64,000 nucleotides of DNA from the IMG/VR virus record IMGVR_UViG_3300032157_000002, positions 17,327 through 81,326 of that record; one strand, given 5' to 3'. Below, piece by piece: positions 1-523 of the stretch. The stretch is from a virus. The notes beneath the pieces are model-generated. The model was not told where the DNA came from, did no database searches, and was given only the letters and a program-made list of their open reading frames with translations. Numbering within the stretch: the first letter of the stretch is position 1; every line of letters begins with the position of its first letter. The translations under genes and the position numbers were made by a program.

Positions 1-509
1 ATATTCTCCCAGGTCATGCCGGGCTGGAACTGGCGTTCTAGGTGGCGGCGGAGGTCGGCTACTGAATAGCCTAGGACTTCCTGCCAGCTTCGACCGCCCT
101 TGGTGCTCTTTAGTCCTGACAGAAGGCGCCTTCGCATCCTGTGTGACAGGACATAGCTCGGGTTTTCCCTACCCTTGCGCCGGGCTCTCCTCTTTAACTC
201 TGTGACTTTTTCCGGGTTATTTTTGCGCCATCTTGCGGCCTTTGCCCTGACTTTCTCGATGTTCTTTCTGAAATACCGTCCCTGCTGGAGCTTGCGCTTT
301 TCAGGGTTGGATTTTATCCATGTGCTGGTCTGCGCCTTCTGACACACCTTGCAGTAAGGCTTGAAGCCATCTCGCCACTTGGCGCCCTTGTAGAAGAATT
401 CGAGGGTGGCGGGCTTGTGCTCGGTGCATTTTGGGCAACGCTTTGAAGTGGCTTGGAGGGCAGGGCTCGAACCTGCGACCAACGCAGTAACAGTGCGCCG
501 CTCTTCCAC
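1..509 (-). CDS. HNH-family homing endonuclease (runs off window start)
   Basis: Open frame: KRCPKC...YCKVC Zn finger, basic repeats, then LGYSVADLRRHLERQFQPGMTWEN, typical of phage HNH proteins. Only plausible starts are GTG (509) or TTG inside tRNA-Asn; in-frame TAA lies just upstream of the tRNA. Confidence 0.75.
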   Translation of the reverse strand, partial: MEERRTVTALVAGSSPALQATSKRCPKCTEHKPATLEFFYKGAKWRDGFKPYCKVCQKAQTSTWIKSNPEKRKLQQGRYFRKNIEKVRAKAARWRKNNPEKVTELKRRARRKGRENPSYVLSHRMRRRLLSGLKSTKGGRSWQEVLGYSVADLRRHLERQFQPGMTWEN

Positions 510-523
510 TGAGCTACCTCCAA
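449..523 (-). tRNA. tRNA-Asn(GTT)
   Basis: Cloverleaf TTGGAGG/CCTCCAA, loop CT-GTT-AC, TTCGAGC T-loop, encoded CCA. Confidence 0.95.

Follow-up and report, generated by a model that had tools for sequence, protein, structure and literature searches.

Candidate translation signals for a phage HNH nuclease gene within the tRNA-Asn gene that precedes it

From where is a nuclease gene translated when its reading frame emerges from a tRNA gene and no start codon lies between the two? The question is posed by a virus record of 102,270 bp in IMG/VR, about 91% complete and carrying 25 tRNA genes, part of which (a stretch of 64,000 nucleotides, hereafter the window) was analysed. On the minus strand, at the left edge of the window, a gene for tRNA-Asn(GTT) overlaps the 5' portion of a gene for an HNH-type nuclease.

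A reading frame that runs through tRNA-Asn

The tRNA gene spans positions 449-523 (449/452-523 by ARAGORN/Rfam; minus strand) and scores 66.9 bits with Rfam. It encodes its own CCA, has G73 and a U1-A72 pair, and is the sole tRNA-Asn across the 102-kb record. The nuclease ORF occupies positions 1-509 of the same strand with its 5' 169 codons and continues past the window's left edge; the complete ORF (L001:1341-2009, minus strand) has 222 codons. According to the original prediction the nuclease frame is open through the entire tRNA, with a TAA just ahead of it. Indeed, a TAA at 527-525 is followed by a single base and then by the tRNA at 523, and the frame is free of stops from 524 through to the end of the nuclease gene. 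The overlap between tRNA and ORF measures 61 nt (509-449), such that the tRNA would supply residues 1-20; 201 codons lie past the tRNA.

Two elements within the tRNA resemble an initiation region, at the places where the prediction had put them: a candidate Shine-Dalgarno (SD) sequence, GGAGG, at 517-521 on the minus strand (tRNA positions 3-7, the 5' strand of the acceptor stem); and, after a spacer of 7 nt, a candidate GTG start in the nuclease frame at 507-509, in the D loop. The GGAGG pairs with CCUCC in the 7-bp acceptor stem, both in the Rfam alignment and in minimum-free-energy folds. Folding of the nascent RNA gave nothing significant besides the tRNA itself. An alternative in-frame start, TTG at 480-482 (minus strand), lies in the anticodon-stem/variable region of the tRNA and has no SD.

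Past the tRNA there is little to choose from. The claim that neither an ATG nor a ribosome-binding site separates the tRNA 3' end from the zinc ribbon holds, and can be extended: from the tRNA end (449) up to the first cysteine codon (437), no in-frame ATG, GTG, or TTG and no SD was found. The in-frame codons from the encoded CCA (451-449) to the first cysteine are ACT TCA AAG CGT, and a non-canonical start among these codons, which have no SD, was rejected. The first CxxC of the N-terminal zinc ribbon (C25 and C28; 426-437, minus strand) begins 12 nt past the tRNA end, and the first in-frame start beyond the tRNA is a GTG at residue 55 (345-347, minus strand), again with no SD. All starts that would keep the whole CxxC...CxxC ribbon therefore lie inside tRNA-Asn, and GTG 509 is the only one of them that bears an SD.

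The TAA ahead of the tRNA belongs to a small gene, ORF77 (77 codons; 525-758, minus strand), with a hydrophobic C-terminus and a good GGAGG and ATG of its own. Its stop is in the nuclease frame, 1 nt ahead of tRNA-Asn and 15 nt ahead of GTG 509. ORF77, like the in-frame TTG at 482-480, is a detail absent from the original prediction. Family searches with ORF77 gave no match, and useful relatives of ORF77 and of the next small ORF were not found in IMG/VR. A sigma-70-like promoter match within ORF77 (TTGAAG-17-TATTAT with a TG; 556-584, minus strand), from which transcripts would begin about 25 nt before the tRNA, was set aside as not above chance, one such site being found against 1.3 expected.

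The nuclease gene is flanked by tRNA-Asn on one side and, on the other, by a hairpin that ends the minus-strand gene block. Directly past the nuclease stop (L001:1230-1340, minus strand) the sequence TTGACG occurs three times, at spacings of 13-20 nt, followed by a perfect hairpin of 12 bp; these could be regulator sites and the terminator of the block. A "cut-and-replace" cassette, in which the nuclease travels with its own tRNA and splits an older tRNA-Asn, was considered and rejected; no other tRNA-Asn fragment was found in the genome.

The nuclease and the start of its coding region

The product can be accepted as an HNH-type nuclease on motif and profile evidence. It matches PHROG 1035 ("endonuclease VII") from residue 19 onward with an E value of 4.5e-24, and its database homologues number 548; sequence searches of Pfam, NCBIfam, and PDB with the nuclease returned no match, and one of 32 relatives matched HNH_4 at 4e-4. 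The catalytic histidine dipeptide of HNH/beta-beta-alpha-Me nucleases is present (WHIDHIVP, with D176-H177), as are the downstream metal-site residues N202 and N211. These residues are invariant in 32 aligned members, and the nuclease keeps all invariant residues of its family. In the same alignment the N-terminal CxxC-x24-CxxC ribbon is nearly invariant, its four cysteines being 90-100% conserved. The ORF stands free between genes, rather than inside an intron or intein. Together, these features suggest an intact free-standing EndoVII-like HNH nuclease gene, of the homing-endonuclease type that settles in the tRNA clusters of phages.

Where, then, does its coding region begin? The closest homologue, P0003, is 59% identical overall, and 30 of 34 residues are identical in the ribbon region (residues 23-56). 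This excess of identity in the ribbon makes codons 22-54 look translated. Among 115 homologues, the first cysteine usually falls 2-20 residues from an ordinary methionine, the distance being 2-12 residues in most, and a start just ahead of the ribbon is thus the family norm. P0003 and P0031 begin M-KRCPKC, and their methionine aligns with the TCA codon of the nuclease considered here. Because these closest homologues have an ordinary methionine one residue before KRC, the copy in the window may have lost its start. An AlphaFold (AF2) model of the full-length protein, with a mean pLDDT of 84.9, is confident over residues 21-218, rises above 90 from residue 21, and leaves residues 1-20 disordered, as would befit a passenger leader peptide.

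The public gene call for this protein, P0002, takes a different start, GTG 347 at residue 55, and thereby loses three of the four ribbon cysteines. Were it correct, the phage would make a truncated nuclease of 168 residues lacking most of the zinc ribbon, and a few homologues (P0028, P0062, P0075, and P0086) likewise have no N-terminal CxxC. We consider such a product improbable: it would have to be initiated without an SD in a phage that uses SDs almost everywhere, and it splits a ribbon whose cysteines are so widely conserved, while the ribbon-less database entries may be artefacts of the same kind of gene call. The start of P0002 probably arises because the tRNA was masked, and systematic mis-annotation of this type is likely in genes that abut tRNAs.

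Chance, habit, and related junctions

Initiation in this phage depends on SD sequences: of 76 AGGAG+ATG sites, 61 open ORFs of at least 60 codons. GTG starts are rare, GGAGG+GTG opening such ORFs at 3 of 11 sites. At each of the eight other same-strand junctions between a tRNA and an ORF, AAGGAG and ATG are found 14-24 nt past the tRNA; the junction between tRNA-Asn and the nuclease is the sole exception. The tRNA-Asn is also the only one among the genome's 25 tRNAs to contain GGAGG and a start followed by a long open frame.

Other genes in this genome run up against tRNAs from the opposite side. In five cases the stop codon of an ORF precedes the 5' end of a tRNA by 1-4 nt. Two nuclease genes of the HTH-HNH type go further and place their stops within the following tRNA: in one (20125-20670, plus strand) the TAG stop is U8-A9-G10 of tRNA-Gln CUG, and in the other (45990-46535, minus strand) it is U8-A9-G10 of tRNA-Leu CAG. 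The two are 25% identical to each other. RNase P cutting would remove those stop codons, since they lie within the tRNA, much as has been suggested for T4 segB. Judged from its gene layout, then, this genome habitually borrows translational punctuation from its tRNAs. (Its operons are compact and tRNA-punctuated, for example at window positions 1305, 20836, 44141, 44727, 44962, 45662, and 48212.)

How often would such an internal site arise by chance? In a base-rate sample of 458 unique phage tRNAs, an SD and a start, 5-9 nt apart and open to the tRNA 3' end, were present in 1.5% with a 5-mer SD and in 7.2% with a 4-mer. Corrected for frame (divided by three), the chance of an internal SD and start is about 0.5-2.4% per tRNA. 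Despite this low base rate, a single case out of a very large scan could be chance. The elements themselves are also ordinary. GTG 509 belongs to the generic AGUGG D loop of tRNAs; a Pseudomonas-phage tRNA-Asn, 80% identical, has the same D-loop GTG, but GGAUG in place of GGAGG; and an unrelated phage tRNA-Asn bears GGAGG-8-GTG (GGAGG at positions 3-7) with no nuclease or other relevant gene downstream. A generic GTG, together with GGAGG in an unrelated tRNA-Asn, implies that the internal site need not have been selected. It may be a pre-existing feature of the tRNA that was put to use, or a coincidence.

Homologue loci fetched by similarity (160, of which 80 were from IMG/VR and 80 from metagenomes) include none with a tRNA directly upstream, and the idea of a family-wide trait was rejected on this count. 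One of them, L114, does have an upstream tRNA; it is separated by a 56-nt spacer from a nuclease that has its own ATG. The metagenome relatives among the matches listed are at most 46% identical. A word search with nuclease residues 1-45 yielded no candidates, and the exact 3' half of the tRNA-Asn had no match in IMG/VR. Cultured phages have in common with this phage region only the tRNA itself, at about 80% identity.

Many tRNA-nuclease junctions emerged from two scans that used DNA patterns instead, namely a T loop with the ribbon motif no more than about 50 nt behind it. Two of those in IMG/VR share the start-less arrangement. At L172 (identical to L175; 257-817, plus strand), the CCA of tRNA-Gln(UUG) is followed directly by AAA ACA TGC, and an intact HNH ORF continues with no start outside the tRNA. 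Its protein is in the family of the window nuclease (47% identity over the nuclease domain); the candidate starts are TTG codons inside tRNA-Gln, preceded by weak SDs (GGGG). At L189 (8203-8745, minus strand), tRNA-Arg(UCG) is followed after 1 nt by AAG ATC TGC, and the intact HNH ORF again has no outside start; an in-frame GAGG-8-GTG lies within the tRNA, and the frame is open to ATG codons upstream of it. A third case comes from a protein, P0009 (42% identical), whose first 20 residues read as a translated tRNA-Phe, with the frame and the distance to the first cysteine both matching those of the window nuclease. Compared with 1,374 frame translations of tRNAs, the N-terminus of P0009 reaches a best score that exceeds the mean by 4.8 SD. 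The start-less arrangement of tRNA and HNH gene thus recurs independently, in two IMG/VR junctions and in P0009.

A second arrangement was also found. In at least nine junction types, all with zinc-ribbon HNH genes and from unrelated phages, an ATG, GTG, or TTG start codon lies 1-4 nt past the tRNA end. The tRNAs concerned are tRNA-Gly UCC, Trp, Gly GCC, two Met, Asn, Arg ACG, Lys, and Arg UCU; the loci are L171, L190, L232, L238, L255, L261, L288, L290, and L223/L258 from IMG/VR, and L300 from mycobacteriophage Myrna. A gap of 1-4 nt leaves no room for an SD, and the arrangement suggests leaderless translation following excision of the tRNA. A further regularity did not last: the nuclease frame seemed locked to the frame of the T loop in 8 of 9 junction types from the first scan, and proved so in only about 11 of 20 in the broader one. 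A gene of another kind was noted as well (L257:229-740, minus strand), whose 138-residue product has two zinc ribbons but lacks a nuclease motif; the gene follows tRNA-Leu(UAA), has no outside start, and has an in-frame ATG in the D arm of that tRNA.

Could the window nuclease be translated by some comparable route, without GTG 509? The fragment left after trimming might be initiated in leaderless fashion at a non-canonical codon, as would fit the many HNH genes that start just past a tRNA; or read-through of the TAA might fuse ORF77, the leader, and the nuclease, which share one frame. Either is very improbable. The bases that follow the CCA, CUUCAAAGCGU, contain no AUG, GUG, or UUG; read-through of TAA is rare in bacteria, and no TAA suppressor was found among the genome's 25 tRNAs; and sharing of a frame is a 1-in-3 chance.

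The junctions bear as well on a more serious alternative: that the nuclease is a silent remnant, a homing gene that was deprived of its SD and ATG when the tRNA junction was rearranged, has so far acquired no further lesions, and no longer gives rise to full-length protein, the signals in the tRNA being generic. Homing endonuclease genes are known to decay after fixation. The closest homologues do carry their own methionine just before KRC; the GTG is part of the ordinary AGUGG, and acceptor stems with GGAGG occur in unrelated tRNA-Asn genes; L172 has no convincing internal site; and a scan of about 250,000 windows could, by selection alone, yield one case of this sort. Against this, 201 codons are intact with every invariant residue kept, and the ribbon is better conserved than the remainder of the protein. 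A simple point loss does not account for the missing start, as it takes three substitutions to turn ATG into the present TCA. Moreover, the chance of an in-frame strong SD and start is only about 0.5%, and two or three more start-less junctions likewise keep long intact ORFs that are open into the tRNA. On balance we regard a silent gene as rather unlikely, though as the main rival.

A proposed mechanism and its precedents

The best reading, to which we assign a probability of somewhat under one half (about 0.45), is that the nuclease is translated from GTG 509 on unprocessed transcripts, probably with assistance from ORF77 ribosomes, until folding or excision of the tRNA puts an end to it. 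A 30S subunit would engage the GGAGG at tRNA positions 3-7 and the D-loop GTG, and translation would then proceed through tRNA-Asn, adding a disordered leader of 20 residues to the enzyme. A stop codon shortly before an SD and a start is a standard setting for termination-reinitiation coupling, and with the ORF77 stop 15 nt before the GTG, such coupling is a likely delivery route. A ribosome completing ORF77 and halted at its TAA would cover roughly the next dozen bases; positioned over the 5' strand of the acceptor stem, it would keep the stem from forming, and it could restart 15 nt downstream at GTG 509, aided by a perfect SD. Initiation at 509, coupling to ORF77, and the regulatory consequence are all inferred, whereas the anatomy, the lack of another start, the intact and conserved protein, the recurrence elsewhere, and the outlying position of this junction in its own genome are observed.

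The CCUCC of the 3' acceptor strand, an anti-SD look-alike, would pair with the GGAGG and hide the SD. RNase P cutting at 524/523 and 3' trimming would remove both the SD and the start. With the SD hidden or cut away, tRNA maturation would compete with nuclease synthesis and keep it low. Lacking an independent start, the gene would yield the complete enzyme only while the tRNA portion of a transcript is still unfolded and unexcised; if initiation does occur at 509, RNase P cutting and acceptor pairing make tRNA and translation mutually exclusive on each molecule. The proposal that tRNA maturation caps expression of a putatively toxic nuclease is thus partly supported: it was right about the anatomy, and no better start was found, but the arrangement need not have been selected, given the generic GTG and the occurrence of GGAGG elsewhere. 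Also counting against initiation at 509 are the rarity of GTG starts in this phage, the weak internal signals of L172, and the rarity of the layout in the family (none of the 160 loci fetched by similarity).

Parts of this mechanism have precedents. In phage T4, segB overlaps tRNA-Arg, and it has been proposed, for segB as for the nucleases of T5, that the nuclease message is severed when the tRNA matures, so that expression stays low (PMC2330249). In T5 the overlap with the next tRNA amounts to 23 nt for hegD and 14 nt for hegC (NC_005859). Like the window nuclease, T4 SegB and T5 HegC/HegD (F-Tfl) are free-standing homing-type nucleases, encoded in a phage tRNA cluster on the same strand and overlapping a tRNA. 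The two HTH-HNH genes of the window do likewise, overlapping the next tRNA at their 3' ends. In segB and the heg genes the overlap involves the end of the nuclease gene, including its stop, and the genes have their own SD and start 17-23 nt past the preceding tRNA; in the window nuclease the overlap is at the 5' end, with SD and start codon inside the tRNA. SegB, moreover, is a GIY-YIG enzyme, whereas the window nuclease belongs to the HNH type.

Hairpins that sequester the ribosome-binding site are known for I-TevI, I-TevII, I-TevIII, and mobE of phage Aeh1, and are predicted for segB (PMC3014915). In the I-TevI and mobE type a stable helix encloses the SD of the homing nuclease gene, and most transcripts consequently give little protein; correspondingly, the candidate SD here lies in the acceptor stem helix and the GTG in the D loop. 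The difference is that the sequestering structure in the present case is a working tRNA, which is also excised from the transcript. Owing to this excision, the block would be irreversible, and it would be linked to the making of a useful RNA, not to which promoter is used.

Among cultured phages, the nearest likenesses are mycobacteriophage Myrna gp210 and Dandelion gp160, zinc-ribbon HNH genes joined directly to a tRNA. The annotated TTG start of Myrna gp210 (L300, 122636-123163) is the base right after the tRNA-Asn annotation. Unlike the candidate start in the window, it lies outside the tRNA, so gp210 could be translated without a leader once the tRNA is cut out; the nuclease domain at its C-terminus is also of another HNH subfamily (DFDH...CxNCH type). 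In Dandelion gp160 (L301, 94845-95354) no stop precedes tRNA-Trp, and the HNH ORF crosses tRNA-Trp and stops inside tRNA-Tyr. A literature search found no paper that discusses the tRNA junctions of either gene.

Finally, in mitochondrial tRNA punctuation, coding regions abut tRNAs without a spacer, and RNase P together with 3' trimming sets the ends of the mRNAs. The phage shows a similar economy, with five tRNAs preceded at 1-4 nt by an ORF stop and eight followed at 14-24 nt by a start. Excised mitochondrial mRNAs, however, retain a start codon at their new 5' end or close to it, whereas the window nuclease would lose its only start. Overall, the mechanism combines two known themes, sequestration of the ribosome-binding site (PMC3014915) and cleavage of nuclease mRNAs by tRNA processing (PMC2330249). 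Restraint of a homing nuclease by tRNA maturation has already been proposed for segB and T5; what is new is a 5' overlap that places the SD and start inside the tRNA.

If the reading is true, this tRNA would be the first functional one from bacteria or phages to harbour a ribosome-binding site and start codon, as far as the literature search showed. It would also act as a very simple competitive switch, each transcript yielding a tRNA or a dose of nuclease but not both. For annotation there is a practical side: gene callers mask tRNAs and so produce mis-started genes, and the public call here halves a zinc ribbon. The HNH genes that start 1-4 nt past a tRNA include one from cultured Myrna, making the question directly testable in a laboratory host.

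A broader proposition can be put forward tentatively, as possible rather than probable. The tRNA would serve as the initiation region of a selfish nuclease, each primary transcript being spent on a tRNA or on a single round of nuclease synthesis; and zinc-ribbon HNH genes across many phage lineages would have given up start or stop signals of their own and would rely on the sequence of tRNAs and their excision, being initiated within a tRNA or set free as leaderless mRNAs. Initiation of the nuclease inside the tRNA, if real, would also explain how selfish nuclease genes can occupy tRNA clusters while leaving hardly any footprint and doing the phage little harm.
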